Positions 3,594 through 30,761 of a DNA stretch of 64,000 bases are shown here, one piece after another. How positions within the stretch are numbered: the stretch's first letter is position 1; each line of letters starts with the position of its first letter. This DNA is from Nanobdellota archaeon (GTDB taxonomy: Archaea > Nanobdellota > Nanobdellia > SCGC-AAA011-G17 > GW2011-AR17), in the NCBI GenBank assembly GCA_013329215.1, contig DUKS01000002.1:13669-77668 (forward strand). The letters are read 5' to 3'. Below the pieces are notes generated by a model. That model did not search any database. It worked only from the letters and a program-made list of their open reading frames with translations, and had not been told where the DNA came from. The position numbers were made by a program, and so were the translations under genes.

Positions 3594-5741
3594 TTACATC
3601 GAAAACTTAAACGCTCCCTTTTTTGACGCGCTTTCAAGGCTCCTTTTTTCGCAGTATTCCTTTCTTTCCTTGAACTCTTCCCTTTTGCCGTCATTCCAGC
3701 TTTGGACAGGCCTGTAGTATCCCACAACCCTGGAAAACACCTCGCAGCCCTTGCCGCATACGCTGTTTCCTGTTTCGTGCGAGCACAACCACTTTTCTCC
3801 CTTAAGATAGCCGTGGTCGGGGCAGACGCTGAATGTCGGCGTTATTGTGAAGTATGGCAGCTTGTAGTTGTGGACAATCTTTTTAACCAGCTGCTTGCAT
3901 GCTTCCGAGTCTGATATTCTTTCCCCTACAAATCCGTGCAGCACAGTCCCTCCTGTATATTTGCACTGCAGCTCATCCTGGTGGTCCAGCGCTTCAAAAA
4001 TGTCGTCTGTGTAGCCTACCGGCAGGTGCGTGCTGTTTGTATAGTAAGGCACTTCTTTCCCCGCCGTAAGAATATTAGGGAACTTTGCCTTGTCCATCTT
4101 TGCAAGGCGGTAGCTGCATCCTTCGCCCGGGGTTGCTTCAAGGTTATAGCTGTCGTTCGTGCTGTCCTGGTAGTGCTTAAGCTCATTTCTCATTATATCA
4201 AGGGTTTTCAGCGCAAACTTTCTTCCCTCAGTTGACGCAATGTTTGTGCCGAACAGGTTCAGGCATGCTTCATTCATGCCGATAAGCCCAATTGTATTGA
4301 AGTGATTGTTCCAGTATTTGCCGCTGGATTCCTTAACGCCTGAAAGATACCTTCTTGCATACGGATAGAGCCCTTTTTCAGTGAAATTCTCTACGCTTTT
4401 CCTTTTTATATCCAGGCTGTCTTTTGCTATTTTCATAAGCGCGAGCACGCGCTCCATGAACTCTGTTTCATTTTTAGAGGTGTATGCTGCCCTGGGCATA
4501 TTCAGTGTGACAACTCCCAGGCTGCCTGTGAGCGGGTTTGCCGCAAACAGCCCGCCGCTTCTCTTCCTTAACTCCCTGTTGTCAAGCCGCAGCCTGCAGC
4601 ACATGCTCCTGACATCGTCGGGCTGCATTTCAGAGTTCACAAAATTCCCAAAGTAAGGTATTCCCAGCTTTGATGTTATTTCAAACAGGTCATCAAGCAC
4701 CGGGTTGTCCCAATCGAGGTTTTTTGTAATATTATAAGTGGGAATTGGGAATGTGAATACCCTTCCTTTTGCATCTCCTTCTGCCATAACTTCTATGTAC
4801 GCCTTGTTGATAGTATCTATTTCATTCTGGAATTCGCCGTAAGTCTCAGGCATCACTTTGCCTCCTATAATTACCGGTGTATGCTTTAGCATATCCGGCA
4901 CAGTGAGGTCTATTGTTATATTTGTAAACGGCGTTTGAAAACCAACTCTTGTGGGAACATTCATGTTAAAGATGAATTCCTGCAAAGCCTGCTTTGTTTC
5001 CTTGTAATTAAGCTTATCATATCTTATGAACGGGGCGAGAAGCGTGCTTACATTTGAAACAGCCTGCGCGCCGGCGCTTTCCCCCTGCAGCGTGTAAAAG
5101 AAGTTTGTTATCTGGCCGAGAATTGCCCGGAAGTGCTTTGCCGGCTTGCTTTCCACTTTTTCGCTTACCCCTCCGAACCCCTTTACCAGCAGCTCCTGCA
5201 GGTCCCAGCCGCAACAATATGCGCTTAAAATCTGCAGGTCATGCAAATGAAGGTCTCCTTCAATGTGCGCGTTCCTGACCTCCGGCGGGTATACCTTGTG
5301 CAGCCAGTAGTTTGAGCTGACAATCGAAGAGATATGGTTATTCAGCCCCTGCAGTGAATAGCTCATGTTGCTGTTTTCCTTGACACGCCAGTCAAGCAGG
5401 TTAAGATATCCATCCATAATCTCGTTTGAGTTTACAAAAGACTGGAACTCCCTTATTCTTTTGTGCTGTTCCCTGTAAATGATGTAGGCCTTTGCTGTCT
5501 GCGCATGCCCTTCTTCGATCAGTGTCTTTTCAACTGCATCCTGCACATCTTCCACGCTTGGAATATCCTTTTCATTGAACCCCCGCTTGCCGAGGAGCTC
5601 AACAACCATTTCAGCAAGCTCGTCCGACCTTCCCCTGTCTGTCCCCCCAACGGATTTTGCCGCCCTGAAGATTGCTTCGCTTATCTTGTTCTTGTTAAAA
5701 AGTACAATCTCGCCTGTCCTTTTCTTTATTTGTGATATCAT
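3594..5741 (-). CDS. nrdD: Anaerobic (class III) ribonucleoside-triphosphate reductase NrdD
   Basis: N-terminal ATP-cone; C-terminal Zn site CPDHGY...CSHETGNSVCGKGC; glycyl-radical motif RVVGYY; GGGGG Shine-Dalgarno-like sequence 8 nt upstream. Confidence 0.9.
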   Translation of the reverse strand: MISQIKKRTGEIVLFNKNKISEAIFRAAKSVGGTDRGRSDELAEMVVELLGKRGFNEKDIPSVEDVQDAVEKTLIEEGHAQTAKAYIIYREQHKRIREFQSFVNSNEIMDGYLNLLDWRVKENSNMSYSLQGLNNHISSIVSSNYWLHKVYPPEVRNAHIEGDLHLHDLQILSAYCCGWDLQELLVKGFGGVSEKVESKPAKHFRAILGQITNFFYTLQGESAGAQAVSNVSTLLAPFIRYDKLNYKETKQALQEFIFNMNVPTRVGFQTPFTNITIDLTVPDMLKHTPVIIGGKVMPETYGEFQNEIDTINKAYIEVMAEGDAKGRVFTFPIPTYNITKNLDWDNPVLDDLFEITSKLGIPYFGNFVNSEMQPDDVRSMCCRLRLDNRELRKRSGGLFAANPLTGSLGVVTLNMPRAAYTSKNETEFMERVLALMKIAKDSLDIKRKSVENFTEKGLYPYARRYLSGVKESSGKYWNNHFNTIGLIGMNEACLNLFGTNIASTEGRKFALKTLDIMRNELKHYQDSTNDSYNLEATPGEGCSYRLAKMDKAKFPNILTAGKEVPYYTNSTHLPVGYTDDIFEALDHQDELQCKYTGGTVLHGFVGERISDSEACKQLVKKIVHNYKLPYFTITPTFSVCPDHGYLKGEKWLCSHETGNSVCGKGCEVFSRVVGYYRPVQSWNDGKREEFKERKEYCEKRSLESASKKGAFKFSM

Positions 5742-5773
5742 CTTGCGCCCCCTTACCGCCTCTTTTTAATGGC

Positions 5774-6226
5774 TTATTTCTTCAGCAACTTCTTCAGTTC
5801 CTCGTGGAATGATTCCACATCCTCAAATTCCCTGTATACTGAAGCGAACCTTATGTACGCGACCTTGTCCAGCTTTTTAAGTGCAGCCATGACGAGCTCG
5901 CCTATCTTCTTGCTGGGAATCTCTGTTTCGCCAAGCCCCGCAATCTTCATCTCTATTTCCCCTACAGCCCTGCCAATCATATCCCTCGAGATGGGCCTTT
6001 TTTCGCAGGCCTTTGTAATGCCTCCCATAAGCTTATCACGGTTGAACTGCTCCCGCCTTCCGTCTTTTTTGATTACAATCACGTTTGAGGTTTCGAGCCT
6101 TTCGTAAGTTGTGAACCGCTTCTTGCATTTTGGGCATTCGCGCCTGCGCCTGATTGAGTCTTCTTCATCGCTGTCCCTGCTGTCCAAAACGCGGGTGTCT
6201 TTGTGCCTGCAGTAAGGACATTTCAT
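5774..6226 (-). CDS. nrdR: Transcriptional repressor NrdR (zinc ribbon plus ATP-cone)
   Basis: MKCPYCRHKDTRVLDSR...CPKCKKRFTTYE zinc ribbon followed by an ATP-cone; directly upstream of nrdD-nrdG. Confidence 0.85.
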   Translation of the reverse strand: MKCPYCRHKDTRVLDSRDSDEEDSIRRRRECPKCKKRFTTYERLETSNVIVIKKDGRREQFNRDKLMGGITKACEKRPISRDMIGRAVGEIEMKIAGLGETEIPSKKIGELVMAALKKLDKVAYIRFASVYREFEDVESFHEELKKLLKK

Positions 6227-6236
6227 TTTGACTCTT

Positions 6237-6252
6237 CCACCAGATATTGTGC
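6237..6252 (-). promoter_or_regulatory. Candidate NrdR box between the TATA box (6255-6268) and the nrdR start
   Basis: Minus-strand gCACAATATCTGGTGg versus consensus aCACwAtATaTwGTGt (12 of 14 core positions); TATA cttattttaaaaag about 27 nt upstream of the ATG. Confidence 0.4.
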
Positions 6253-6417
6253 CTCTTTTTAAAATAAGATACTATACCTTGCGTTTTTACGGTATTTAAA
6301 GATTTGTGTTTTGCAAAAGTGGTTTTTGAACAATTATATTGCAGTGCAGGCTTGTTCACCTCGTTGGGGCACCAGGCTCTTTCAGTTCGTTAATTTCCTT
6401 CGTTACACTCGGAAACC

Positions 6418-16896: not shown

Positions 16897-18954
16897 CTAT
16901 TGGCCTTTCTTTTTCCAGTGGTTTATCACAAAATCCCCATCTACAACTAGCTCGGTTGCATTTCCCCCGACCATCTCATATAGCATATTATTAAATATTA
17001 CTTCGCACACGCTGTTCAGGCTTCTTGCACCCTGCTTTAATTTTTGCGCGGCTTCTGCTATGGCCTGACGTGCATCTTCTGTCACCTCAAGTCTTATCTT
17101 TGCTTCCCTGAACAGCCTTCTGTAGTGCCTGAGCACCGCCCCCTTGGGCTTTGTTAAAATATCCTGCAATTCGTCTCTTGTGAGCTCATATAAGGGCGCG
17201 CGAATGGGAAATCTCGCAACAAACTCAGGAAGGAAACCATAGTCTATAAGGTCCTGCGGCGTTACCGCCTCAAGCAGTTCATCTGTTTTCAGTTCGTTGC
17301 CTTGTGCGCCGAACCCAAGCTTCCCGCCTTTGCTTTTGGCAACTTTTTCTGTAAGGCTCTCCCCTGAGGAACTTTTTGAAAATGCGCCGCCTGCTATAAA
17401 CAGGATGTTTGTTGTGTCTATGGGGATTGAATCGCCATGGCGGCTCAGCCTGACATTTACAATTGAGCCTTCGACAGGCTTCAGCATCTGCTGCTGCGCT
17501 CCCTGGCCCCCCACATCATGCCCTCCTCCTTCTGTTGCTTTTCTTTTGTCTATTTCATCAAGGAAGATAACTCCTTTTTGGGTTTGTTCTAAGTCTTTTC
17601 CTGCCACGAAGTATAAGTCCCTAACCGGCTCATCGGCCTTGCTACCCCAGATGCCTTCATCTGTTATCTTGGATGCGTCAGAAACAGTGAATGGTATTCG
17701 CCTGCCCAGCATCTTTGCGAGGATTCTTGCGCAAGTAATTGCAGTGTAAGTCTTGCCGCAGCCTGTCGGCCCGAGCAGAAGTATGTTGCTCTTTTTCATC
17801 TCTTCATCTTCATCCTCTGCGCCTTTCTCTCCAATGCTTGTGACCCTGACTGCGTGCGAATAAAGGCCCACTGCAATAATGCGCTTTGCTCTTTCCTGCC
17901 CGATAATATATTCATCCAGCCATTCCTTGATTCTTCTTGGCGGCGGGACTTCTATATCTGAATCGCTGCTTTTTGCCAGCGCTTTCATCTCAAGCTCGCT
18001 TGGCATTTTGCCTTTGATATCTGCAAGGCTCTTGATTTGCCTGAGCATGAAAAGGAGCCCGCTTGAAATATCAAATTCAGGGTTAGCCCTTACATAAGCC
18101 AGGCCTTTTTCATATGCCTTGGCAAGGTCGCCTTTAATACCAGGCAAACTCTGGTCAAGAATATACGCCTTGAACAGGAACTGCACTGCCATCGGCACTG
18201 TTTCAGGGGCATTTTCCAGCATGAAATGCCCATACTTGTGCATAACAGCCGCATTGTCGGGCGCTTCATTCTTGCGGTGCTTCATCATCTGCACAAACGG
18301 CATTGTTTCCATGCCCCCCCCTTCTGATTTCTTCTCCCATATCTTTTTTCCGAACTTCGCAATAAGAAAGTCAGGGTCATCAAACTTCAGCCTGCAGGCA
18401 TTGACCATGCATTCATGCGCCTTGTCTTCGTATTCGCTGTTTGTGCCTTTTGCAAGCGTGTAGAGCTCATGCATTGCCGCATGCAGCCTGGCGTCTTCAG
18501 GGAATACAGAAAGCGCAATCTCGCCGACTTTTATCGCTTCGGGCACCATGTAAGCGCCGGCCTTCGGCATTTCCTGCCCGAGGAATTCCATGTATGAAAG
18601 GTAATTGTCAGGCGTTTCCTGTAGCTTTATCAGTGTTGAATGGTCCCTGCATCGCTTCCTGAATTCTTCTGCAGCCGCTGCGGGATTTTTGTATGCCTCA
18701 GACCCCATTCTTCTTCCGCATTCCAGGGACATTCTGCACATTGCAATCCTCTCTTCAAGCGAATCTGTGCTTGTCCCTGCTACATCGAATGTAGTGCGCG
18801 CATCATCAAAATTTCCATCAAGAAAGCTTCTTACGCCCGCTGCCTTTACGGTTGCATATTTCGTTCTCTCTCTTCTAGATGTTGACAGCTCGCCGCAGCT
18901 AAAACCCTTGCGAAAAGCCGCTGTAAGGTCCGTATTTTCAGGCTTTCCCATCAA
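16897..18954 (-). CDS. ClpX-family AAA+ unfoldase paralog 1 with novel ~330-aa helical N-terminal domain (no zinc finger)
   Basis: C-terminal half is ClpX-like: IKEWLDEYIIGQERAKR, LLLGPTGCGKTY, IFLDEIDK, GGGHDVGGQGAQQQMLK, NILFIAGGAF, LGFGAQ (IGF-loop-like), pore loop GIWG, LIDYGFLPEFVARFP; TATA 18975-18988. Confidence 0.75.
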   Translation of the reverse strand: MMGKPENTDLTAAFRKGFSCGELSTSRRERTKYATVKAAGVRSFLDGNFDDARTTFDVAGTSTDSLEERIAMCRMSLECGRRMGSEAYKNPAAAAEEFRKRCRDHSTLIKLQETPDNYLSYMEFLGQEMPKAGAYMVPEAIKVGEIALSVFPEDARLHAAMHELYTLAKGTNSEYEDKAHECMVNACRLKFDDPDFLIAKFGKKIWEKKSEGGGMETMPFVQMMKHRKNEAPDNAAVMHKYGHFMLENAPETVPMAVQFLFKAYILDQSLPGIKGDLAKAYEKGLAYVRANPEFDISSGLLFMLRQIKSLADIKGKMPSELEMKALAKSSDSDIEVPPPRRIKEWLDEYIIGQERAKRIIAVGLYSHAVRVTSIGEKGAEDEDEEMKKSNILLLGPTGCGKTYTAITCARILAKMLGRRIPFTVSDASKITDEGIWGSKADEPVRDLYFVAGKDLEQTQKGVIFLDEIDKRKATEGGGHDVGGQGAQQQMLKPVEGSIVNVRLSRHGDSIPIDTTNILFIAGGAFSKSSSGESLTEKVAKSKGGKLGFGAQGNELKTDELLEAVTPQDLIDYGFLPEFVARFPIRAPLYELTRDELQDILTKPKGAVLRHYRRLFREAKIRLEVTEDARQAIAEAAQKLKQGARSLNSVCEVIFNNMLYEMVGGNATELVVDGDFVINHWKKKGQ

Positions 18955-18999: not shown

Positions 19000-20988
19000 C
19001 TAATTTTTGCCAACCGCTTTCAAAACCTCTCCCCTTCCTACTGAATAGTTCTTTATGCTGCTGCCAGGCAGGTAAAACAGCGCATCCTCAAAAAGTGAGT
19101 CGCATATTGTCCTTAGGCTTCTTGCGCCTGCATTTAGCGCATATGCCTCTTCTGCTATTGTGTCAAGCGCATCAGGCCTGACATCAAGCTTAACATCTGA
19201 CAGCCTGAACATTTCAACATACTGCGGTATGACCGCATCTGCGGGCTCTGTAAGTATCTTCCTTAATTCCCGCTCGCTTAGCTGCTCAAGCACAATCCTG
19301 TGGTGCAGCCTGCCAACAAACTCGGGTATGAAGCCGTATTCTATCAGGTCCTTGTCTGTGAGGCGGCCGGATATGCCCTTATTCTTGGGCGCTTCTTCAT
19401 GCCCGCCCATTCTAAACCCAATGTGCTTCTCTCTTGCGCCTATAACCTCTCCGATGCTGCCGCCTTCATTTGAAAAGGAAAATGCGCCGCCGACTACAAA
19501 CAGGATATTTGTCGTGTCTATCTGTATATATTTCCCCTGGCTTACTTCAACATTCACGACAGAGCCTTCAAGCAGCTTTAGATACTGCTGCTGCGCCCCC
19601 TCGCCGTTTACGTCCTTGCCCCCTCCCTTTATAGCCCTTATCTTGTCTGCTTCATCAAGATAGACAATCCCTCTTTGCGCGAGCTCAACATTCCCATTTG
19701 CAGCCCCCAGCAAGGCCAGGAGGCACTGCTCTGCTTTGTCCCCCACATATCCGGCGCTTGTCACTTTTGAAGTATCAATCACGACAAACGGAACACCTGA
19801 CATTTTAGCAAGCATGTTAAGCATGTATGTTTTTCCAGAGCCTGTCGGCCCAAGCAGGAGCATGTTGCTCTTGTCCAGCTTTTTCGCATTTTTGTCCATC
19901 GCCTGCCTAAGCCTGAGCAGGTGCATGTAATAGCCGACAGAAACCCCCATCTTTGCTTTTTCCTGTCCTATGACATAATCATCAAGGTGCGCCTTGATTT
20001 CCCGCGGCAGGACTACTTTAACCTCTTTTGAAAACTCCTTGACCTCATCCACTCTTGTTGCATTCGGGTTTTCGTTGCGCAGCTCTTTTTTCAGCTTGGC
20101 GACTTCTGCATAATTTTTGTGCAGCGCCTTAAACTGTTCCCCGTTCTTTCTCCTCCTGAGGCTTGCAGCTGCCTTGTCAAACGCTTCAACGACATCTTTT
20201 TTAATGCCATCAAGCGTCGGCTTTCCTTTCCACGCTTTGTATAAAGTGTAGAGCGCCCATTCTTCATGCGTATTAATGTTCCTGAGCATGTACCTGCCAT
20301 ATTTCTGCAGCGCTTCCGGATTTCTAAGTATTGCGTGCCCTTTGTATTCCATAATAATATAAAATGGAGCCTTTTTCATCTCAAACACCTCGCCTGGCTG
20401 CCAGAGCATTTTGCCGAATTCATTAATGAGGTAGTCGGGGTCATCGAACTTCAGCTTCACCAGCGCTTCAAGCCTTTTTTGCGCTTCTTTGTAGTTTTCG
20501 GTAAACACATATAGCTCGTACATCTCTGAATGAATCCTGTGGTCTTCCGGAAATCTTTCAAGTGCAATTTCCCCTACCCTTATGGCTTCAGCCATCATGT
20601 TTATGTGATGCACTTCCGCCATATCCTTTCCAAGAAAGTTCATGTACGACAGGAAGTTGTCAGCTGTCTCATGCGTTCTTATCGTGAACTCATAAGTGCT
20701 GCGCAGCCTATTGAATTCCTCTTCTGTCGGGCTTATCCTGAAAAGCTGTTTTGCGCAATCCAGCAGTTTCCCGCTGATTGCGTCTTTTTCAGAAACTGAA
20801 TCGGTTTTTGTGAGGGCTGTCATGAAACTAAACTGCGCCTCGAGGTAGTGCTCATCAAGGTAATCCCTCATTGCGTTTGCTTTATTCAGCCTAAATTCCG
20901 CCTTTATTTGATATAAAGAACATAGTCCGGCACAGTCAAAAGAGCCCTTTAGCCTATCTTCAAGGCTTTTGTTGCCTTGCTCTGCCAT
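19000..20988 (-). CDS. ClpX-family AAA+ unfoldase paralog 2 with the same N-terminal domain
   Basis: IKAHLDDYVIGQEKAK, LLLGPTGSGKTY, pore loop GYVGD, IVYLDEADKI, GGGKDVNGEGAQQQYLKLLEG, HIGFRMGG (IGF loop); N-domain aligns with paralog 1 (DNFLSYMNFLG, AIRVGEIALERFPED, KLKFDDPDYLI); likely start MAEQ at 20988, placing the TATA (21011-21018) 26 nt upstream. Confidence 0.75.
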   Translation of the reverse strand: MAEQGNKSLEDRLKGSFDCAGLCSLYQIKAEFRLNKANAMRDYLDEHYLEAQFSFMTALTKTDSVSEKDAISGKLLDCAKQLFRISPTEEEFNRLRSTYEFTIRTHETADNFLSYMNFLGKDMAEVHHINMMAEAIRVGEIALERFPEDHRIHSEMYELYVFTENYKEAQKRLEALVKLKFDDPDYLINEFGKMLWQPGEVFEMKKAPFYIIMEYKGHAILRNPEALQKYGRYMLRNINTHEEWALYTLYKAWKGKPTLDGIKKDVVEAFDKAAASLRRRKNGEQFKALHKNYAEVAKLKKELRNENPNATRVDEVKEFSKEVKVVLPREIKAHLDDYVIGQEKAKMGVSVGYYMHLLRLRQAMDKNAKKLDKSNMLLLGPTGSGKTYMLNMLAKMSGVPFVVIDTSKVTSAGYVGDKAEQCLLALLGAANGNVELAQRGIVYLDEADKIRAIKGGGKDVNGEGAQQQYLKLLEGSVVNVEVSQGKYIQIDTTNILFVVGGAFSFSNEGGSIGEVIGAREKHIGFRMGGHEEAPKNKGISGRLTDKDLIEYGFIPEFVGRLHHRIVLEQLSERELRKILTEPADAVIPQYVEMFRLSDVKLDVRPDALDTIAEEAYALNAGARSLRTICDSLFEDALFYLPGSSIKNYSVGRGEVLKAVGKN

Positions 20989-21079
20989 GCACATATTATA
21001 TGCAGCCGGCTTTATAAACATTCTCCCTTCTATCACACGTTAGAAAAGCTTTTAATCATGCTTCCGCTTTTTCAGCTGT

Positions 21080-23377
21080 ATGAAAGGGTTCATAGTATAC
21101 ACAAACTACAGGCTGCTTGATGAAAAGCCTTATGTTTTTCTCATAGGCCGGCTTGAAAACGGGGAAGCGTTTGTAACTGTAAGCTCTTACAGGCCATACT
21201 TTTACATAAAAGAGCAGGATTTGAAGCAGGCTGTGAAGCTTGACCAGTTTGAGCATGAAAAAACGCAGATGAAGGACTTTGAAGGGGAAAAAGCAGCGAG
21301 AATTTTCACACAAAAGCCTTCTGACGTGCCTGAGCTAAGGCACCTGTTTGAATCCAACGGCATTAAATGCTATGAAGCTGACATTAGGTTTGCCCAGCGC
21401 TTTCTTATAGACCACGAGCTAAAAGGAACCGTTGACATTGAAGGTGATTATGAATATCAGGACACGCTGCGCGTTTACAGGGAGCCGAGGCTGAAGACCT
21501 GCGAATTCTGGCCCGAGCTCAAGGTGCTTTCAATCGATATAGAAACAAGAAGAGATGCAAAAGAATTGTACGCAATCGCGCTTGCATCAAAGGAGAAGGA
21601 CACAGCGCTTATAGTATCCGAAAAAAAAGTAAAAGGTGCAGTTGCATGCAAAGATGAGGAAGAGCTTATCACGAAATTCCTTGCATCTGTCAATGAGTAT
21701 GACCCTGACATAATCACAGGCTGGAACCTGATAGACTTTGACCTGAAAGTCTTGCAGGAAAGATGCAGGGGATACGGGATGGAACTTGCAATAGGCAGGG
21801 GCGGAAAAAAATGCAGGCTGAAGATTGAAGCTGATTTCATGAAAACCTCAAAAGCAGACGCGGAGGGCAGGATAATAATTGATGGTATGCAGCTTTTGCG
21901 CGATGCATTTGTAAAGCTGGAAGACTACAGGCTTGAAACCGCAGGCAGGACACTTGCCGGCGAAGGCAAGCTGGTGAAGTTTACTGACAAAGGCAGGGAA
22001 ATAGAAGCAATGTTTTTGGAAAACAAGCAGCTTCTTTCTGAGTACAACATGCAGGATGCAAAGCTTGTGCTCAAAATCCTTGAAAAGACAAACGTTCTGA
22101 ACATTGCTGTTGAAAGAAGCATTCTTACAGGAATGCCTATAGACAGGGTTTCAGCTTCAATCGCATCCTTTGACTCGCTTTATCTGAGGGAAGCAAGGAA
22201 AAGAGGAATTGTATGCCCGTGCGCATCATATGCAGAGAAAATGGAAAGGGTCAAGGGCGCATTTGTCATGGAACCAAAGCCAGGCATATATGACAATGTT
22301 ATTGTTCTTGACTTTAAGTCACTATACCCGTCTATAATACGGACTTTTAACATAGACCCCGCGAGCTTTGCTGCCGGTTGCAAGGGAAAAAATCTTGTAA
22401 AAGCGCCGAACGGCGCATGCTTTAGGAACGAGGATGGGATTTTGCCTGAAGTCATACAGCGCCTGTGGGAAGCAAGGGAGATTGCAAGAAAAAGAAAAGA
22501 TGAAACCGCAAGGTTCGCAATCAAGATACACATGAACAGCATTTACGGCGCAATGGCATCCCCAAACTGCAGGTTCTTTAACATGGACATTGCAAATGCA
22601 ATAACCTCTTTTGCAAGGCAGATAATACAGGCATCTGCCGCTGAAATAGAGAAAAAAAAGTATGGCGTGCTTTATTCTGACACAGACTCCTGTTTTGTTG
22701 TGTCTAGGGCGAAAACACCGGAGGAAGCAAATGAAATAGGGCGGGGGCTTGCGGCAGAGATTAATGAATTCTACAACGGGCTTGTTAAAAAGGAATTCAA
22801 AAGGCAGTCTTTCCTTGAAATGCAGTTTGAGAAATGCTTTTCAAAGTTCCTTATGCCAAAGCTGAGAAAGTCGGAAACAGGCGCCAAGAAACGGTATGCG
22901 GGCCTGTATGTGAAAAATGGGAAAGAAGCAATATCCATCACAGGGCTTGAGTTTGTAAGGGGCGACTGGACAGAGCTTGCCAAGAGGTTCCAGTATGAGC
23001 TGCTTGACAGGCTTTTCCACAACAAGGAAATACTGCCGTTTATTTCAGAGTTTGTAAAAAAGCTGCAGGGTGGGGAGTTTGATTCGCTGCTGGTTTACAG
23101 GAAGACCGCAAGGAAGAACCTTGACGAGTACACTAAAACAACCCCGCCGCACATAAAAGCCGCAAGAAAGATGGAAAAAGTTGAGAACAACCGAATTGAA
23201 TATATTATGACCGAAGACGGGCCTGAGCCGATGGAAAAGATTGAGCATAAGATTGATTACGGGCATTACCTGAAAAAGCAGCTAAAGCCAATTGCTGATT
23301 CAATATTGACTTTCTTCGGGCAGACATTTGAGGATGCTGCAAAAGGCGTGAAGCAGCAGACGCTTGGGAATTATTGA
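21080..23377 (+). CDS. polB: Family B DNA polymerase
   Basis: Exo I LSIDIET; motif A DFKSLYPSII; motif C YSDTDS; KxxxNSxYG (KIHMNSIYG). Confidence 0.9.
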   Translation: MKGFIVYTNYRLLDEKPYVFLIGRLENGEAFVTVSSYRPYFYIKEQDLKQAVKLDQFEHEKTQMKDFEGEKAARIFTQKPSDVPELRHLFESNGIKCYEADIRFAQRFLIDHELKGTVDIEGDYEYQDTLRVYREPRLKTCEFWPELKVLSIDIETRRDAKELYAIALASKEKDTALIVSEKKVKGAVACKDEEELITKFLASVNEYDPDIITGWNLIDFDLKVLQERCRGYGMELAIGRGGKKCRLKIEADFMKTSKADAEGRIIIDGMQLLRDAFVKLEDYRLETAGRTLAGEGKLVKFTDKGREIEAMFLENKQLLSEYNMQDAKLVLKILEKTNVLNIAVERSILTGMPIDRVSASIASFDSLYLREARKRGIVCPCASYAEKMERVKGAFVMEPKPGIYDNVIVLDFKSLYPSIIRTFNIDPASFAAGCKGKNLVKAPNGACFRNEDGILPEVIQRLWEAREIARKRKDETARFAIKIHMNSIYGAMASPNCRFFNMDIANAITSFARQIIQASAAEIEKKKYGVLYSDTDSCFVVSRAKTPEEANEIGRGLAAEINEFYNGLVKKEFKRQSFLEMQFEKCFSKFLMPKLRKSETGAKKRYAGLYVKNGKEAISITGLEFVRGDWTELAKRFQYELLDRLFHNKEILPFISEFVKKLQGGEFDSLLVYRKTARKNLDEYTKTTPPHIKAARKMEKVENNRIEYIMTEDGPEPMEKIEHKIDYGHYLKKQLKPIADSILTFFGQTFEDAAKGVKQQTLGNY

Positions 23378-23423
23378 CTTAATCACATAAATCCTTATAA
23401 ATCATGTTTCGATTACCTGAGTT

Positions 23424-24278
23424 ATGGCTTACCTCTCTGAAATCCACGCCTGCCGGTGGATAAAAGACCCTGTAAAGCTTTATATTTCCTTTACAGCTGC
23501 TGACCAGCACAAATCGCTTGCAACAGACATTGCAGTTGCTGTCACAAAAGCATTGCAGGAAGACCACAGGGCTTATCTTTCAAAATACGCAGGGTTTGCA
23601 GGCAAGAAAATAGTTTATGCTGATTCCAATCCTGATTCTGGCTCAAGCGAGCATGAAAATTGGCATACATTCCTTGAGAGAAGAAAGCTGAGCCCTGCTG
23701 CAGGGGAATTCATAGAGGAAGCAAGCTCTTATGTGATAGACGACCTGGAAACAGACAAGCCTTCCTGTGAGTACCTGAAGCACCTCAACTGGAGCAATGA
23801 GTTTGTCAGGACTTACCTTGCCATGCAAAACCGCCCCATATCAGAGCTCGAAACAATCCTGAGGCAGTTCGGGCACATTATCCCTGAATGGAATGAACAG
23901 GTAATGAAGGGCTCGTGCCCATGGCTGCGCTTCACAGACGAGGCAAAATATTTCCTGCTTTATCATCTCTGCTTTGACATAGCTTTCGGAAGGACAATAC
24001 AGGAGGCAAAACGAATCTACACCACTTCACTAAAAATAACAAAAAAGAAGGGTGTTGCAGCAGGGATAAAGCATTTAAGGCGGCGCGCTTCAAAAGCTGT
24101 TTCTGACATGTATGATTTTGATTTTGATATAGGCGGCTATTATCCAAATTATCCTTCCCTTGTGGAATACAGATTTTTCGGCAAAGAAGGGATTATCATA
24201 GAGGCGTGCGGAAAATATCCCTCATGGGTTGTGCCTCTTGACAGGGAAATTAAAAGAAGGGGGCTTGTCCCTGATTGA
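23424..24278 (+). CDS. Hypothetical protein, paralog A of a tandem pair (conserved Cys/His, unknown family)
   Basis: Shares HACRWIKDP, GxFIEEAS, CPWL, YFLLYxLCFD, GIxHLR, DxYDF...DIGGYxPxYP and EIKKRG with the next ORF. Confidence 0.55.
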   Translation: MAYLSEIHACRWIKDPVKLYISFTAADQHKSLATDIAVAVTKALQEDHRAYLSKYAGFAGKKIVYADSNPDSGSSEHENWHTFLERRKLSPAAGEFIEEASSYVIDDLETDKPSCEYLKHLNWSNEFVRTYLAMQNRPISELETILRQFGHIIPEWNEQVMKGSCPWLRFTDEAKYFLLYHLCFDIAFGRTIQEAKRIYTTSLKITKKKGVAAGIKHLRRRASKAVSDMYDFDFDIGGYYPNYPSLVEYRFFGKEGIIIEACGKYPSWVVPLDREIKRRGLVPD

Positions 24279-24328
24279 TGATTTGCAGAATATAAATGCT
24301 TATAAATCTTCAAAAAATCCAGCTTACT

Positions 24329-25183
24329 ATGGTCTCGATTCTTGAGGTAATGGCCTGCCATAGGATAAAGGATCCCGTTCGCTTTTATCTTCACACAACT
24401 TCAGAAGGGGAATATGAATTCCATGCAAGGGAATTTGCTGAAACTGTCGCAAGAAGGCTGATGGAAACAAGAAGGGCCTACCTTGCCACCGTTTCCGCGT
24501 TTGCAGATGACGGCAGGGTCATTTCCACAAAAGAAACGAGCGATGGCGGGCAGGCGCATGAAAGATGGCATAATTACGTGCAGGAAAATAAGCTTGAGTC
24601 TGATGCCGGGGATTTTATAGAAGAGGCAAGCGCTGCTGTAATTGAGTCTGTTACTGACGGATATGGCGACAAGTACCTTGAGCCAAGCAAGAGGTTCCTC
24701 CAGCTCCACCTTCTGGTGCAGAGGAGCAGCGGCGAGGAACTGGAAAAAATACTTGAAAAATTTTTTGTTGGCGACAAGGAACTTGTATATGAAGCTGACA
24801 AGATAATTATGGGCGATTCCTGCCCGTGGCTAAGCTATCTTGCGGAGGCGCCTTATTTTCTCCTTTACGGGCTTTGTTTTGATGTCTGTGCAACGAGGGG
24901 CCTAAGGGCTGCCAAGAGCATATATAAGACTGCGCTGAAAAAATCCAAATGCAAGGGAGTTAATGCAGGGATAAACCACCTCAGGCAGCATGCGACTTCC
25001 TCTGTTGCAGACCTTTATGATTTTTGCCTGTCTGACATAGGGGGATATCTGCCGAGCTATCCCCAATCACACCAGATGGAATATGTCTTTTTTGACAAAA
25101 AGCTGAAGATAGAAGTTTGCTTTGCTTACAAATCATGGCTTGAGATTGTTGAAAAGGAAATAAAGAAAAGAGGCTTTAGATAA
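24329..25183 (+). CDS. Hypothetical protein, paralog B of the tandem pair
   Basis: MACHRIKDP...DSCPWLSYL...YFLLYGLCFD...GINHLRQH...DLYDF...DIGGYLPSYP; start placed at the M that aligns with paralog A. Confidence 0.5.
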   Translation: MVSILEVMACHRIKDPVRFYLHTTSEGEYEFHAREFAETVARRLMETRRAYLATVSAFADDGRVISTKETSDGGQAHERWHNYVQENKLESDAGDFIEEASAAVIESVTDGYGDKYLEPSKRFLQLHLLVQRSSGEELEKILEKFFVGDKELVYEADKIIMGDSCPWLSYLAEAPYFLLYGLCFDVCATRGLRAAKSIYKTALKKSKCKGVNAGINHLRQHATSSVADLYDFCLSDIGGYLPSYPQSHQMEYVFFDKKLKIEVCFAYKSWLEIVEKEIKKRGFR

Positions 25184-25814
25184 ATTCTTTTAACTGCTTC
25201 GTTTCCGGCTTAAATACAAATGCATTCGCCGAGTCAAACCATCCGCACATGAAATTCTCAATCGGTATGCCTGCCCTTTTGCTCAGCATCAGTGCATAGA
25301 AATAAGTCTGTGTTGCCGCATACTTCTCCCTGTCTGCATTCGGCTTGTAGTCCCATACCCATATCTTGTTTCCTTCAATGCGCAGCAGGTCTATATGGCC
25401 TGTAAGCGGCTTCTCCTCCCTGAAGAGATGGCTGAATCTGTCTGTTTCTTCAGGCAAAAGCCAGACAGGCACTTCAATCGCAACCGTATGCCTGTCATTC
25501 TCCAGCATGAACATCTGGACTTTCAGGTGCTCTGAGCTGAACCTTTCCGCGTTTATGCCCAGCCCGTATGAGGTGAGAAGGCTTATGTCGTGGTCGTTGT
25601 GCCTTCTTATGTCAAGGTTCGGCATCTGAAAGCGGAGCTTTGAGCTTCTCGGCCCCTCAAGGAAATATTTGTCAGGGCAGCTTTTGAAAAGGCAGTTCAT
25701 GTATTCGTTCAGCCCGGAAAATCCGCTGCAAAGCAGTTCGCCTGCCTTTTTTTCATGCACGCTGTAGTCGTATTTCCACCCGTGCCAGAATTGTTTTTGT
25801 TTTATCACATCCAA
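25176..25814 (-). CDS. PD-(D/E)xK nuclease superfamily protein (RecB/Cas4-like core with QxxxY)
   Basis: GHIDLLRIEGNK...VWDYKPN...QTYFYALML; TTG start in the track; convergent with paralog B and overlapping it by 8 nt. Confidence 0.5.
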   Translation of the reverse strand: MDVIKQKQFWHGWKYDYSVHEKKAGELLCSGFSGLNEYMNCLFKSCPDKYFLEGPRSSKLRFQMPNLDIRRHNDHDISLLTSYGLGINAERFSSEHLKVQMFMLENDRHTVAIEVPVWLLPEETDRFSHLFREEKPLTGHIDLLRIEGNKIWVWDYKPNADREKYAATQTYFYALMLSKRAGIPIENFMCGWFDSANAFVFKPETKQLKEFI

Positions 25815-25869: not shown

Positions 25870-25900
25870 CAGGCTCTGCATACATTGGTGCGTTAGCGGG
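25870..25900. repeat. Left copy of a 30-bp inverted repeat (28/30 identical to 29210-29240)
   Basis: gcatacattggtgcgttagcgggtgcttag versus the reverse complement of 29210-29240; 23-nt perfect core acattggtgcgttagcgggtgct. Confidence 0.7.
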
Positions 25901-25978
25901 TGCTTAGAATAGGCACGTATCATGCATTTTACCCTATACTTTGCCCGAAAAGTTTAAAAGTAAGGTATATTCACCATA

Positions 25979-26998
25979 GTGACGATGGCAAAAAGGCGAT
26001 TAGCAATAACAGAAGCTTCTACCAAAGATAACAGGAAAGACGCGGAGAAAGGAAAAGTTAAAGCTATTGCTAAACCTAAACAAGAGACTATTCGCCCTTA
26101 CCAAAAAAAGAGGAATAACATACTCTCTAAATTTAAGGTATGCACTAATAAACTCATTCAACATCGAAAAAATCCCATATTAGTCATGTTTTACTGTTCT
26201 GAAGGTGAAGGGAAAATTTTCCCTTGGGATTTGGCGTTGCTTGAGAAAGAATTTCAACATTATTGTGACTGTAGAAGAATTAGCAAGATAGATAAACTTG
26301 ATTTGATTATCTATACTAGGGGAGGGGATGCAAATACCTCTTATCGTTTAGCACAGTTAATAAGGGGCTATGTTAATCATTTGCATGTCATCATTCCAGA
26401 GTTTGCATATAGCGGGGGGACACTTATTGCTTTTGCAGGCAATTGCGTAGAAATGGGGGTTACAAGCGTGCTCTCACCAATTGATGTTCAAATTACTGAT
26501 AATAAAGATAAAGGGATTTCCCTGCTTGGCTTTGAAAAGTTTGTTGAGTTTATAGCAGACAGTTCGGCAGTTTTTCATCTTGAGGAACAAGAAAAAGCTC
26601 ACTTTGCCACGGAACTTATGAAATGTTTAGTTGAACAAGCCACTCCACTTGAACTTGGAGAAATATATAGGTTAAGAAGTATGACAAAGTATCATGCTGA
26701 AACTCTTTTAGCGAATTATATGTTTGGTAATGATGCAAACAAGGCAGCAATTATTCATAATGTAATAGGTGCCTTTACTAAAAATGCACCTTCTCATAGC
26801 TTTGATATGGACTATAATCTTGTTAAAGCAACTGGTATTAAAGTCAAACCAATGGATAGTAAAACATATAAACTCTCAAAGTCCCTAATAGAGCTATGCG
26901 TAAAGTTAGCAGACGAAGGATTAATTTGCAAATATCCGCAAGCCCAACTCAAAGTGAGGGCTCCTTACTTCGGCATATTCGACAGAAAAGATATGTAA
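25979..26998 (+). CDS. ClpP-fold serine protease, SDH (serine dehydrogenase proteinase, ex-DUF114) family
   Basis: IIYTRGGDANTSYRLAQLIRG...HVIIPEFAYSGGTLIAFAGNCVEMGVTSVLSPIDVQ, which resembles my recollection of the SDH/DUF114 family consensus (TPGG...A..I..........YAMSGGTLIAL.AD.IVM....LGPIDPQ); the gene is markedly AT-rich. Confidence 0.6.
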   Translation: MTMAKRRLAITEASTKDNRKDAEKGKVKAIAKPKQETIRPYQKKRNNILSKFKVCTNKLIQHRKNPILVMFYCSEGEGKIFPWDLALLEKEFQHYCDCRRISKIDKLDLIIYTRGGDANTSYRLAQLIRGYVNHLHVIIPEFAYSGGTLIAFAGNCVEMGVTSVLSPIDVQITDNKDKGISLLGFEKFVEFIADSSAVFHLEEQEKAHFATELMKCLVEQATPLELGEIYRLRSMTKYHAETLLANYMFGNDANKAAIIHNVIGAFTKNAPSHSFDMDYNLVKATGIKVKPMDSKTYKLSKSLIELCVKLADEGLICKYPQAQLKVRAPYFGIFDRKDM

Positions 26999-27152
26999 CT
27001 CATGGAGGCGTAAAAATGACATTCGAAGAAAAGTTTTTGGCAAGTCAAGAATACCACCAAAAAATATTAAAGTTTGAGTTTGAGAAACTCGGCAAGTCCT
27101 ATCTTGAAAAAATATAGGAAAAGAAAGTTAATTAATTTCTATTCTTTCTTTT

Positions 27153-28052
27153 TCATATCCTACCCTTACTCATCTGTATCAATTCCAGCCACTTATTCGG
27201 GGAACTCAGCGTTAAGTCCGTCGCCAACTCATAAGGGCATTTATTCAGTGATTGGTGCTTTGTTATGAAATTGTAGTATATCTCATATCCCTTTATGATG
27301 AGATTAGCACTTTCAACACTTCCGTGAAAGCCACGCATGGTTTTAGTCCTTGCCCTGATGCTGTTGTGCATCCTTTCAATGGGATAATTGAAGCTACCGC
27401 CGTCAGAAACAACCACTTTGTTATGTAATACATTGTGTTGGCGAAGCTTGTTATTGTAGCCGAAAACCCGCTTAATTACCCTCGGATAAGCCTGCAACCC
27501 ATCTGTTGTAATCATTCTGACATTGTCGGACTTTGCCTTAACCTGCTCCATAACTCTTTTTATTTTATCCGCACTTCTTGATTTAGCAAACTCCGCAGCC
27601 ACCATAAACTTTGTGTCAGGGTCTATGCTGTCTATCAGCCAATTCTTATCTAATCCGCCTCTGATGTGGTGCTTTCGCCTGTGGTATTCCACTTCATCCA
27701 TCTGGATTTCTTCCCCTGTATTCAGCTTCAAGCTGTCTGTAAAGCCTGATATTTGCCTTGCATACTTCCATAGCCATCTTAGAATTGTGCTGTGGTCTGA
27801 ATTATGCGGGTAGAACGCCTGTAAATGCTCCTGCACCTTTCTTGTGCTTACTCCCCTGTAAAACAGGTCAAGGCACAAGGTTATCTTCTGGGGGCTGTTT
27901 CTCATCCTGTAAAAGCCCTCATCCAAGACAAACCTATGAGAGCAATCCGCACATTTGTATCTCTGAATAAGTCCCCTGTTGCCTGTTTTCCGTAGCCCGT
28001 CTTTCTTGATATGCTCTTTCCCGCATTGTTGGCATTTGATTGCTTTTTCCAT
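27153..28052 (-). mobile_element. IS6-family (IS240-like) transposase with N-terminal zinc finger
   Basis: CQQCGK...CADCSH zinc finger; DDE core with ITTDGLQAYPRVI; TATA tatataaa at 28074-28081 about 25 nt upstream of the ATG. Confidence 0.75.
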
Positions 28053-28056
28053 ACTA

Positions 28057-28099
28057 TTTAGGTACCTAAACAGGTATATAAACCTTTGGGTACCTAAAG
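28057..28099. promoter_or_regulatory. Two GGTACC-centred palindromes flanking the TATA box (candidate operators)
   Basis: tttaggtacctaaa (28057-28070) and ctttgggtacctaaag (28084-28099), centres 28 bp apart, with tatataaa between them; a third copy ttgtaggtacctaa at 28753-28767. Confidence 0.45.
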
Positions 28100-28165
28100 T
28101 AGAAAAGTATATAAATACCTATAATTAATCATAGCTTGTTATAACTTATTATAGTTGATAGGAAG

Positions 28166-28474
28166 GTGAAAACGATGATAAATGGAAGGGCGACAACAAT
28201 ACAGGTGATGGAGAATACAAGACTTTGCCTTGAAAAACTTAAGGTCGTAAAGCAAGAACCTTATGATAATGTCATAAGGAGGATTATAGAGAGAGTATTA
28301 GACTTATGTGAAGAAGGTACAGATTTAGAGACAAAGAAGATGATACAGGGTAGGCTAAATGAGGTTGCTAAAGGGGACGTTATTTCAACAAAGCAGTTAA
28401 GAGATATTTTATTTTCGGGAGGGGAAAAAAATGGTGAAATACGAAAAGGTATGGGCAAGGTCTATAGGGCATGA
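28166..28474 (+). CDS. Putative antitoxin (archaeal VapB-like family)
   Basis: TTIQVMENTRLCLEKLK...EPYDNVIRRIIERVL pattern; upstream of the RelE-like toxin and overlapping it. Confidence 0.45.
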   Translation: MKTMINGRATTIQVMENTRLCLEKLKVVKQEPYDNVIRRIIERVLDLCEEGTDLETKKMIQGRLNEVAKGDVISTKQLRDILFSGGEKNGEIRKGMGKVYRA

Positions 28475-28751
28475 CCTAAAAGGAATAAGTGAAAGAATAT
28501 TTAATGTTATTGATGGTAAAATAGATGATATTCTAGATTCCCCGAACACAAAATCAAAAAAGATAAAAGGATGGGCTTATAATATAAGAAGAATCCGTTT
28601 GGGTAATTACCGACTTTTAATTTATGTGGATGACTTAAACCTAACAGTCTATTGCTTGGCTTATTTACCTAGAAAAAATTGTTATAGCCCAGAAACAAGG
28701 GCAATGATTATGAATATCGCTAGGAATGTTGAAAAACAAAAAAGTATATAA
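28431..28751 (+). CDS. RelE/ParE-family toxin
   Basis: GYNIRRIRLGNYRLLIYVDDLNLTVYCLAYLPRKNCY. Confidence 0.6.
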   Translation: MVKYEKVWARSIGHDLKGISERIFNVIDGKIDDILDSPNTKSKKIKGWAYNIRRIRLGNYRLLIYVDDLNLTVYCLAYLPRKNCYSPETRAMIMNIARNVEKQKSI

Positions 28752-28774
28752 ACTTGTAGGTACCTAATAAAGAT

Positions 28775-28936
28775 ATGAAACTGCAAAAACAGCTTTCTCG
28801 GAAATACGAAGGAAAGGATTATGCCAAGTACGTTATCGTTATAAAACCAACATATATTGAGCAATTGGGCTGGAAGAAGTCCGACGAGCTTAAAGTAGAA
28901 GTTAAGGATAACAAGCTGGTTATAGAGAAGGATTAA
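28775..28936 (+). CDS. Small AbrB/MazE-like (swapped-hairpin) protein, 53 aa; not in the ORF track
   Basis: Manual translation MKLQKQLSRKYEGKDYAKYVIVIKPTYIEQLGWKKSDELKVEVKDNKLVIEKD; a GGTACC palindrome lies 8 nt upstream. Confidence 0.45.
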   Translation: MKLQKQLSRKYEGKDYAKYVIVIKPTYIEQLGWKKSDELKVEVKDNKLVIEKD

Positions 28937-28937
28937 A

Positions 28938-29159
28938 ATGATAAAAGTTAAATCAAAAAGGGGGGTTTTGGCTGAATATCTGAGGAACCCCTATATTGAA
29001 ACAAGCTTAATGGCAGTTATTTATTTTGAATTTAGTAGTATAGTATTAGATTATTTTCCAAAGAAGAAGTATATTTTATTATGCTGGTCTATTATTTCAG
29101 CAATAGTTATAATTGGATATTGGGCATACAGGCAAAAAGCGTATTCAAATAAAACTTAA
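28938..29159 (+). CDS. Small membrane protein (two TM segments)
   Basis: Hydrophobic segments; starts 2 nt after the AbrB-like ORF. Confidence 0.35.
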   Translation: MIKVKSKRGVLAEYLRNPYIETSLMAVIYFEFSSIVLDYFPKKKYILLCWSIISAIVIIGYWAYRQKAYSNKT

Positions 29160-29209
29160 TAATAATAGTTTTCGGACAAATATATTCTTTATATAATCTT
29201 TAATGTGCT

Positions 29210-29240
29210 TAGCACCCGCTAACGCACCAATGTAGGCTCT
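29210..29240. repeat. Right copy of the 30-bp inverted repeat
   Basis: cttagcacccgctaacgcaccaatgtaggc; contains TTAGC-N4-GCTAA; a TATA-like ttataaag lies 14-21 nt downstream. Confidence 0.7.
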
Positions 29241-29291
29241 GCAAAAGGCTTATAAAGTATAGCTGAATAACTTTCAGCGGGGGTAATTATA

Positions 29292-29702
29292 ATGGCAGAA
29301 ATATCAGAACTCGGAAGAAAACAGATTGAGTGCTGGACAGCGCTCAAGGCATATCTTGAGCAGGTCTTTGCAGATGAGAAGCTGGAAAACCTGCTTTTTA
29401 ACGGAAGGCGGGACATAGAACTATTCACGGCTAAAGATGCCGAGGTAAATGCAAAAGGAGCAAAGGTGCAGGTTGTTTATGGAATAAATGGCGTTGGTGC
29501 ATACCGCAAGGTCGAAGATGAAACCCTTTTCCAAAACATATTCCACTACCGCTGGGGGCACCGCCATTCCCCGTTCGCCCTCGCTTTTGCGCTTGCTGCG
29601 GACTCAAAGGACGCGCTGACACCTGCAGACCTGGAAGCAAAACTTGGGCCTTACAGGCAGATGGCGGCCGGCACTGCCCAGCCCGCCCCGCAGGCAAAGT
29701 AA
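29292..29702 (+). CDS. Hypothetical protein with GC-rich Ala/Pro-rich C-terminus
   Basis: ORF only; preceded by the 30-bp repeat and a TATA. Confidence 0.35.
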   Translation: MAEISELGRKQIECWTALKAYLEQVFADEKLENLLFNGRRDIELFTAKDAEVNAKGAKVQVVYGINGVGAYRKVEDETLFQNIFHYRWGHRHSPFALAFALAADSKDALTPADLEAKLGPYRQMAAGTAQPAPQAK

Positions 29703-29738: not shown

Positions 29739-30761
29739 ATGGGAGTTAAGCTTACAGACATAGTGCCGAGAAAAGAGATAGGCTGGGATGTGCTTAGCGG
29801 GAAAGTGCTTGCGCTTGACGCTTCAAATGTTCTTTACCAGTTCTTAAGCTCGATAAGGCAGCCTGACGGGACTTTATTGATGGATTCAAAAGGAAGGGTT
29901 ACGAGCCACCTCGTTGGCCTGTTTTCCCGCACTACAAACCTTATTGAGAAAGGAGTAAAACCGGCGTTTGTGTTTGACGGAAAGCCCCCTGCATTAAAAG
30001 GCGGTGAAATAGAGCGGAGGAGGGGGAGAAAAGAAAAAGCTGCTGAGAAATACGAAGAGGCAAAAGAAGAAGGCGATGAAAGCAGCATGCTGAAATACTC
30101 AAGGCAGTCAATAAAGCTTACGAAAGAGATGGCTGAAGAGGCAAAAGAGCTTGTTTCTGCCCTTGGCCTGCCTGTTGTACAGGCGCCTTCAGAAGCAGAG
30201 GCGCAGGCTGCATTTATATGCAAAAGGGGCGATGCATGGGCTGTTGCTTCGCAGGACTATGATGCATTATTGTTTGGCGCGCCGCGGGTTGTGCAGAACC
30301 TGACGCTTGCAGAAAGAAGGAAGCTGCCTAACGGAACTTATGCCAAAGTCACTCCTGCCCTGATTGAGCTTCAGGAGACCTTATCTTCGCTTTCAATATC
30401 GCAGGAGCAGCTTTTGTCGCTTGCAATACTTGTCGGCACTGACTTCAATCCCGGCGGCGTAAAGGGGATAGGCGCAAAAAAGGCGCTGAAGCTTGTTTCT
30501 GAATTCAATACAAGGGAAGATATATTCAGGGCTGCAAAGGCGGAATTTGATTACAGGGAAATAGCGGGTGTTTTCAGTGATATGCCTGTAAAAGAGGATT
30601 ACAGCGTTGAGTTCATGCAACTTGATGAGGAAAGGGTAAAGAAGATACTGGTTGACAAGCACGGGTTTTCTGTTGAGAGGGTTGATTCGGGGCTTGAAAG
30701 GCTTAGAGCGAAAAAAGAGGAGAGCAAAGGGCAGACGAGCTTATTGGCATTTGGCAGGTAG
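29739..30761 (+). CDS. fen1: Flap endonuclease 1
   Basis: MGVKLTDIV...LALDASNVLYQFL...AFVFDGKPP; XPG-N and XPG-I regions. Confidence 0.9.
   Translation: MGVKLTDIVPRKEIGWDVLSGKVLALDASNVLYQFLSSIRQPDGTLLMDSKGRVTSHLVGLFSRTTNLIEKGVKPAFVFDGKPPALKGGEIERRRGRKEKAAEKYEEAKEEGDESSMLKYSRQSIKLTKEMAEEAKELVSALGLPVVQAPSEAEAQAAFICKRGDAWAVASQDYDALLFGAPRVVQNLTLAERRKLPNGTYAKVTPALIELQETLSSLSISQEQLLSLAILVGTDFNPGGVKGIGAKKALKLVSEFNTREDIFRAAKAEFDYREIAGVFSDMPVKEDYSVEFMQLDEERVKKILVDKHGFSVERVDSGLERLRAKKEESKGQTSLLAFGR

Follow-up and report, generated by a model that had tools for sequence, protein, structure and literature searches.

The subject of this analysis is a 64,000-nucleotide stretch of contig DUKS01000002.1 from a Nanobdellota archaeon (assembly GCA_013329215.1, positions 13,669 to 77,668; hereafter the window), and within it a pair of adjacent paralogous genes, XA and XB, that lie between the gene for a family-B DNA polymerase (PolB) and a gene for a nuclease. 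We use X for the pair and for the family to which it belongs. The best overall explanation of the data, which we hold at a probability of about 60%, is that X is an unnamed, DPANN-restricted family of soluble predicted zinc metallopeptidases of roughly 280 residues. The X genes are accessory. In one narrow Woesearchaeota-type clade of Nanoarchaeota they occupy a slot between polB and the nuclease gene that is otherwise empty or variable, and they occur as deeply divergent alleles that have been swapped between lineages. Loci of relatives are identified below by L-numbers and homologous proteins by P-numbers.

The X family and its predicted active site

XA (23424..24278, plus strand) and XB (24329..25183, plus strand) each encode 284 residues and are 42% identical over 288 columns (BLASTP E 3e-72). 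They would represent tandem paralogues of an ancient A type and an ancient B type, respectively. An initial annotation, made from the window alone, had already recognised the two as adjacent paralogues on the basis of a set of common sequence blocks. All of the listed blocks are present, except that the leading His of its 'HAC' block occurs in XA only. The blocks common to both proteins are AC[RH]xIKDP, G[ED]FIEEAS, CPWL, YFLLYxLCFD, GIxHLR, DxYDF, DIGGYxPxYP and EIK[RK]RG.

The statement in the same annotation that the proteins match no recognised family also stands. XA, XB and approximately 24–26 relatives fall in no Pfam, NCBIfam, PADLOC or PHROGs family. When PDB sequences were searched with P0027 and with two profiles (A1 and A2), nothing catalytic was returned; the matches were limited to one designed helical protein and one weakly scoring alpha-solenoid protein. 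The family is small. Close relatives number 10 proteins at E <= 1e-3 among 5.8 billion, and a full HMMER profile search of 1.84 billion representatives detects 20. Wherever the source names an organism, the relative comes from a Nanoarchaeota or Aenigmarchaeota metagenome-assembled genome. Viral contigs and GenBank phages contain no relatives, and a viral origin of X is therefore unsupported. Within the narrow clade the genes are kept under purifying selection, as judged from their low ratios of nonsynonymous to synonymous divergence (dN/dS 0.05 for XA and 0.10 for XB). Neither a hydrophobic segment nor a propeptide or signal peptide is found in X.

An alignment of 26 members, with identities down to 15%, contains only five invariant columns: M1, H77, E78, H81 and E99. 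Four of these make up an HExxH motif at residues 77–81, overlooked in the initial annotation, and a glutamate 18 residues after H81. In an AlphaFold2 model of X, a beta-beta-alpha-beta subdomain leads into a helix spanning residues 72–86, which carries the HExxH motif, and then into a second helix spanning residues 92–109, which carries E99. The C-terminal part is modelled as a helical bundle plus a beta-hairpin. The arrangement corresponds to that of gluzincins at each level: HExxH sits in a predicted alpha-helix, the candidate third-ligand glutamate follows in the next helix within the usual spacing of about 18–30 residues, and the model has the upper beta-sheet subdomain, active-site helix and lower helical subdomain of the zincin fold. 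The remote-homology and structure checks proposed at the outset thus give no family or PDB match and, from the model, a zincin-type layout. Together, the alignment and the model suggest that HExxH...E is the signature of a gluzincin zinc metallopeptidase. In the predicted site H77, H81 and E99 would hold zinc, E78 would activate a water molecule, and the substrate would lie along the edge of the beta-sheet just upstream of the active-site helix.

This assignment changes the picture of metal binding. The two proteins had been described as rich in Cys and His, with both residues proposed as ligands. They are not enriched in either (Cys 1.8–2.5%, His 3.2%). Metal binding is nonetheless likely, through H77, H81 and E99 and not through cysteines, of which only C183 is conserved family-wide.

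A point that counts against a peptidase assignment is that no sequence profile ties X to any peptidase family. It leaves some room for a different reading, in which HExxH...E is not a catalytic zinc site and X serves as a helical scaffold or adaptor with no enzymatic activity, or else hydrolyses substrates other than peptides. A Foldseek search of the X model against the PDB likewise gives nothing at E < 1, the C-terminal half of X is helical, and a distant relative has a weak match to the alpha-solenoid protein 3zpj TON_1535 (E 0.006). Set against the invariance of all four predicted site residues and their placement in the model, we consider a non-catalytic X very improbable.

The start of XB deserves comment. 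Its longest open reading frame (24296..25183, plus strand) encodes 295 residues, and the start is most likely Met12 (ATG at 24329), which gives the same 284 residues as XA. The reasons are that the same 10-mer, CTTATAAATC, lies 29 nt before both starts (23394..23403 for XA and 24299..24308 for XB, plus strand in each case) and that most homologues begin at this position. The 'MLINL' N-terminal extensions of some homologues correspond to a translated CTTATAAATC element. Read from the nucleotide sequence, CTTATAAATC resembles an archaeal TATA-type box and probably acts as a promoter element. With one box before each start, XA and XB each appear to have their own promoter, and the box at 24299–24308 would allow XB to be transcribed on its own.

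X genes are also found well outside the narrow clade. Two distant members, P0028 and P0152 (KAU95_02705 and KAU95_02700), are encoded by adjacent genes of a Candidatus Aenigmarchaeota archaeon. Since this is a different DPANN phylum, tandem duplication recurs in the X family. A divergent subfamily with 20–29% identity to XA is present at L010:1741-2628 and L100:4016-4885. On these two contigs the gene order SIMPL, X, Dus (tRNA dihydrouridine synthase) is kept, and it is unrelated to polB.

A variable slot and the exchange of X alleles

The distribution of X was assessed against that of the neighbouring nuclease, which is present in at least 222 species-representative genomes; almost all of them carry the label Woesearchaeota, Nanoarchaeota or just archaeon. 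We surveyed the nuclease loci of 80 of these genomes. X occurs in four of the 80; the other 76 have the nuclease without X and keep its FEN1 and PolB neighbours. In 17 loci the gap between nuclease and PolB genes is merely 16–300 bp, and the slot is therefore empty there. Elsewhere it holds different cargo: a NUMOD3 protein and a cupin in L013, a PQ-loop protein in L015, and an extra AAA_14/DUF4143 ATPase in L002. The NUMOD3 protein in the L013 slot is also 284 residues long; we compared it with X and found it not to be homologous.

Where X is present it usually abuts the nuclease. The two are adjacent and convergent in eight of the nine lineages with context (the window, L001, L002, L005, L008, L011, L019 and L098), and their 3' ends often share an 8-nt overlap. 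We attribute this adjacency to the site of insertion. The remaining lineage, L009, carries an A-type X gene without an adjoining nuclease.

A neighbour-joining tree of the clade's X genes separates two groups. The A type comprises XA of the window, its L005 counterpart, the first gene of L008, L009 and L098, and the B type comprises XB of the window, its L005 counterpart, the second gene of L008, L001, L002, L011/12 and L019/99. Genomes with a single copy have either an A-type gene (L098) or a B-type gene (L001, L002, L011, L019). An obligate A/B heterodimer was considered and judged unlikely, given that either type is kept alone in such genomes.

Two comparisons reveal how X alleles move. Closest orthologue pairs excepted, X proteins are only 36–54% identical to their relatives. 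One such close pair is XA of the window and XA of L005, which are 91% identical with a synonymous divergence (dS) of 0.89. Between the same two loci, dS is 0.9–1.2 over XA and XB, far below the saturated values for PolB and the nuclease. Lineages have therefore exchanged the X cassette.

The second comparison is between L098 and L019, and it involves both sides of polB. In the window the gene divergent from polB on its far side encodes a ClpX-type AAA+ unfoldase, here called ClpX-like. DNA identity between L098 and L019 is approximately 0.9 over methionine aminopeptidase (MetAP), PolB and the nuclease, and it falls to approximately 0.5 exactly over the ClpX-like and X genes, with edges at the gene borders. 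The low-identity genes compared lie at L098:934-3015 and 5489-6361, against the reverse strand of L019 (7200–14400). At the protein level the X genes of the two loci are 43% identical (A type against B type) and the ClpX-like genes 38% identical. On each side of polB, then, an allele has been replaced over the length of one gene, and the replacement stops at the border of the nuclease gene.

The nuclease, its conserved neighbours and two rival functions for X

The nuclease gene (25176..25814, minus strand; 210–212 residues) is convergent with XB and overlaps it by 8 nt, as the initial annotation had described. That annotation called the product a RecB/Cas4-like PD-(D/E)xK nuclease, on the strength of its GHIDLL, VWDYK and QTYFY motifs. 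The motifs are as reported and the RecB half of this name is sound. The protein passes the Pfam PDDEXK_1 cut-off (27.6 versus 22 bits) and has the D...(D/E)xK and QxxxY elements and the fold of RecB-like enzymes. The Cas4 half is not. Among 22 homologues the only invariant cysteines are C46 and C190, and the nuclease therefore lacks the 4-Cys Fe-S cluster that characterises Cas4, Dna2, AddB and Exo5. Scores against Cas4 models are below cut-off (PF01930, 16.5 versus 22.7 bits; TIGR00372, 16.8 versus 65 bits), and no cas genes occur in any neighbourhood examined. On these three grounds we excluded a Cas4 identity. The nuclease also differs from the wider group of Cas4, RecB, Dna2, MGME1 and Exo5 in having no helicase domain and no cas genes nearby.

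At least 701 proteins are homologous to the nuclease at 50–87% identity, and its genomic company is stable. FEN1 lies within 3.5 kb of it in 51 of 64 assessable loci, and a family-B polymerase within 4.5 kb in 39 of 48. Together with FEN1, PolB, MetAP and CDC48, the nuclease belongs to an order-wide syntenic backbone, outside any X module, and is itself most likely a nuclease of replication or repair. In the window the backbone is represented by PolB (21080..23377, plus strand; NF004421, 780 bits), which lies between the ClpX-like and X genes, and by FEN1 (29739..30761, plus strand; TIGR03674, 430 bits). Backbone proteins are also well conserved, with identities to relatives of 70–73% for PolB and 70–87% for the nuclease.

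Two further observations concern the backbone. In 66% of 120 nuclease homologues the motif [LIM]xx[FYW] is present within the last eight residues, compared with 14% in shuffled tails. The tail is of low confidence in the structural model. A possible reading of the motif is a PIP-like site for PCNA binding, as would suit a gene whose conserved neighbours are FEN1 and PolB. Secondly, the polymerases beside the nuclease in L017–L096 are of two kinds. The first kind shares 47–71% identity with PolB of the window, and its gene is convergent with that of the nuclease; the second shares only 25–28% and is encoded on the same strand as the nuclease. Different Woesearchaeota lineages therefore have alternative family-B polymerases in the backbone.

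Between the nuclease and FEN1, the window contains a 3.35-kb transposon (25881..29234, strand not applicable) and a small open reading frame, orf136. The transposon is bounded by terminal inverted repeats of 27 nt with one mismatch, TACATTGGTGCGTTAGCGGGTGCT(T/A)AG, at 25881–25907 and 29208–29234, and flanked by a 9-bp target duplication, GGCTCTGCA, at 25872–25880 and 29235–29243. As cargo it has genes for a DDE transposase and an SDH-type ClpP-like protease, together with a ParE-type toxin pair and a short open reading frame for a membrane protein. Its G+C fraction is 0.39, compared with 0.45 for the surroundings, and it is absent from all relatives compared (L001, L002 and L005). It is a recent, independent insertion and uninformative on X. 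Two other window open reading frames, of 299 residues each, have no relation to the transposase. The product of orf136 (29292..29702, 136 residues) has homologues in the closest relatives only (42–63% identical in L001 and L002; L005 has none) and no family match, and more distant genomes hold unrelated small open reading frames at this position. For these reasons orf136 was discounted as part of the system.

The placement of the X genes and nuclease between polB and fen1, beside a mobile cassette, is thus as the initial annotation had it. From this placement it drew a defence or accessory island in which the paralogues and the nuclease would co-occur as a module. The accessory part is borne out by the rarity of X and the variable slot; the defence part and the co-occurrence are not. 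A defence or accessory module of this kind would combine X as sensor or protease with the nuclease as effector. The frequent convergence of X with the nuclease, their overlapping ends and the toxin-antitoxin pair on the adjoining transposon would all be expected of it. The phyletic pattern, with 76 of 80 loci retaining the nuclease and its backbone neighbours without X, has already largely refuted it. The nuclease is moreover much better conserved than X, replacement of X alleles ends at the nuclease border, X stands without a nuclease beside it in L009 and in its distant relatives, and the transposon is a separate insertion. The defence models of PADLOC-DB v2 give no match for X, only sub-threshold Cas4-like matches for the nuclease (E 2e-4), and weak generic AAA matches for the ClpX-like proteins. 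We regard a single defence module as highly unlikely.

The same neighbourhood could be read differently, with X as a replication or repair protease that works alongside PolB, the RecB-like nuclease and FEN1, for example in the removal of DNA-protein crosslinks as in SPRTN and Wss1. SPRTN and Wss1 are zincins, as X is predicted to be, and X lies directly 3' of polB in seven of the eight lineages with that context (in L002 the AAA_14 ATPase gene intervenes). Several features of X sit poorly with such a role. Most relatives that have the same replication backbone carry no X, distant X members occur in unrelated contexts, and whole-gene allele swapping between near-identical genomes would be unusual for a housekeeping repair factor. 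No DNA-binding domain is detected in X. We also tried and rejected direct membership of the SprT/Wss1/SPRTN group: the third His of the SprT-type motif (HExxHx5H) is missing from the sequence that follows HExxH in X, HENWHTFLERRK, and there is no match to the Pfam SprT-like or WLM models. A role in repair therefore appears improbable to us.

ClpX-like genes as candidate partners and comparison with known systems

The window contains two tandem ClpX-like genes alongside its two X genes. Copy 2 (19000..21036, minus strand) is the one divergent from polB, and copy 1 (16897..18954, minus strand) is 37% identical to it. Both score below the cut-off of the NCBIfam ClpX model (296 bits for copy 1 and 333 bits for copy 2, against 359), and the model covers only its positions ~50–400 (49–394 in copy 2). 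The proteins are not full-length ClpX equivalogs with an N-terminal zinc-binding domain. A TPR-like N-domain (TPR_19) of approximately 330 residues replaces the ClpX zinc finger. The Walker A and B motifs, a GYVG-like pore loop and an [ILVM]GF loop (LGF in copy 1) are kept in all eight copies examined. The last of these sits where ClpX has its IGF loop, which docks ClpP. Given what is established for ClpXP, a ClpX-type unfoldase with an IGF-type loop implies a peptidase partner. ClpP was not found in the part of the genome searched, the 64-kb window, and DPANN archaea generally have no ClpP. A search of the literature for DPANN and ClpX and for archaeal gluzincins gave nothing relevant.

ClpX-like genes are present in exactly the four of 80 species loci that contain X, and likewise in L098, L011/12, L001 and L005–7. 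The mechanism we prefer, although at less than even odds, is that X acts together with the ClpX-type unfoldase encoded across polB. The TPR-domain AAA+ unfoldase would select and unfold proteins and the X metallopeptidase would degrade them, a logic equivalent to FtsH divided into two genes. A more elaborate form of this proposal, which we hold to be rather unlikely, is that ClpX-like and X constitute a new two-gene ATP-dependent metalloprotease, split, soluble, polymorphic and FtsH-like in function, with matched or interchangeable alleles (A and B types of X; types 1 and 2 of ClpX-like) swapped around a conserved polB. If that were true, allele swapping could tune substrate specificity in conflict between host and symbiont or with viruses. 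Without joint action, X would be a stand-alone cytosolic peptidase.

Several observations weigh against joint action, and the coupling between X and ClpX-like is weak. The presence and absence of both genes trace to one clade and therefore amount to roughly one evolutionary event. Between the window and L005, XA is 91% identical and the best ClpX-like match only 42%, so the two genes do not change together, and their copy numbers in L005 differ, with two of X and one of ClpX-like. The distant X relatives between SIMPL and Dus have no AAA+ gene within 6–8 kb.

The uncoordinated change and the unequal copy numbers in L005 also fit a reading in which X and ClpX-like are independent polymorphic genes, perhaps separate conflict or immunity genes, in recombination-prone slots flanking polB. 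Their joint distribution would then stem from common descent and a local hot spot of recombination, and not from a joint function. Both genes do show allele replacement, the slot between PolB and the nuclease does accept other cargo, and the transposon landed in the very next intergenic region. What speaks for a functional link is that presence and absence of the two genes coincide perfectly in the 80 species loci, that exactly these two of five genes were replaced between L098 and L019, and that the conserved docking loop calls for a peptidase and no other is seen nearby. On balance we think full independence doubtful, and joint action of X and the ClpX-type unfoldase no more than suggested.

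One consequence of this analysis is a predicted catalytic assignment, with zinc at H77, H81 and E99 and E78 as general base, for a DPANN-only family labelled 'hypothetical' in every database. X would add a family with no sequence tie to any catalogued peptidase. Separating X from the FEN1–nuclease–PolB backbone also corrects a guilt-by-association that would have put a probable replication nuclease down as an effector of defence. The gene-sized allele islands flanking polB in genomes that are otherwise approximately 90% identical amount to a clean natural experiment, and they point to a possible ClpP-independent partner of an archaeal ClpX-type unfoldase. These reduced symbiont genomes are seen to retain polymorphic genes, X and ClpX-like, whose predicted activity is proteolysis.

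Among known systems, X appears closest by mechanism to thermolysin-like and M1-like gluzincins, judging from its motif and modelled fold, but it is not a member of any curated family. It has no detectable sequence homology with thermolysin and pseudolysin (MEROPS M4) or with the gluzincin families M1, M2, M3, M36, M60 and M61. Compared with these enzymes X is much smaller, is cytosolic, and has neither propeptide nor signal peptide. It is also confined to DPANN and has a distinct C-terminal helical bundle and beta-hairpin. The pairing with ClpX-like recalls IetAS-type defence systems, which likewise combine an AAA+ ATPase with a protease (in X a predicted one) and are accessory with variable alleles. 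IetS, however, is a serine protease; the PADLOC IetA matches to ClpX-like are weak, partial and generic to AAA proteins (E 1e-5 to 1e-8), and X has no PADLOC match (none for XA, and noise at E 0.025 for XB). Further parallels are ClpXP and FtsH, the latter with an AAA+ unfoldase and an M41 HExxH zinc peptidase fused in one protein. As in those systems, a ClpX-type AAA+ protein with GYVG-like and IGF-type loops is found with a predicted zinc peptidase in one clade-specific gene set, and the likeness concerns how the X and ClpX-like pair might work.

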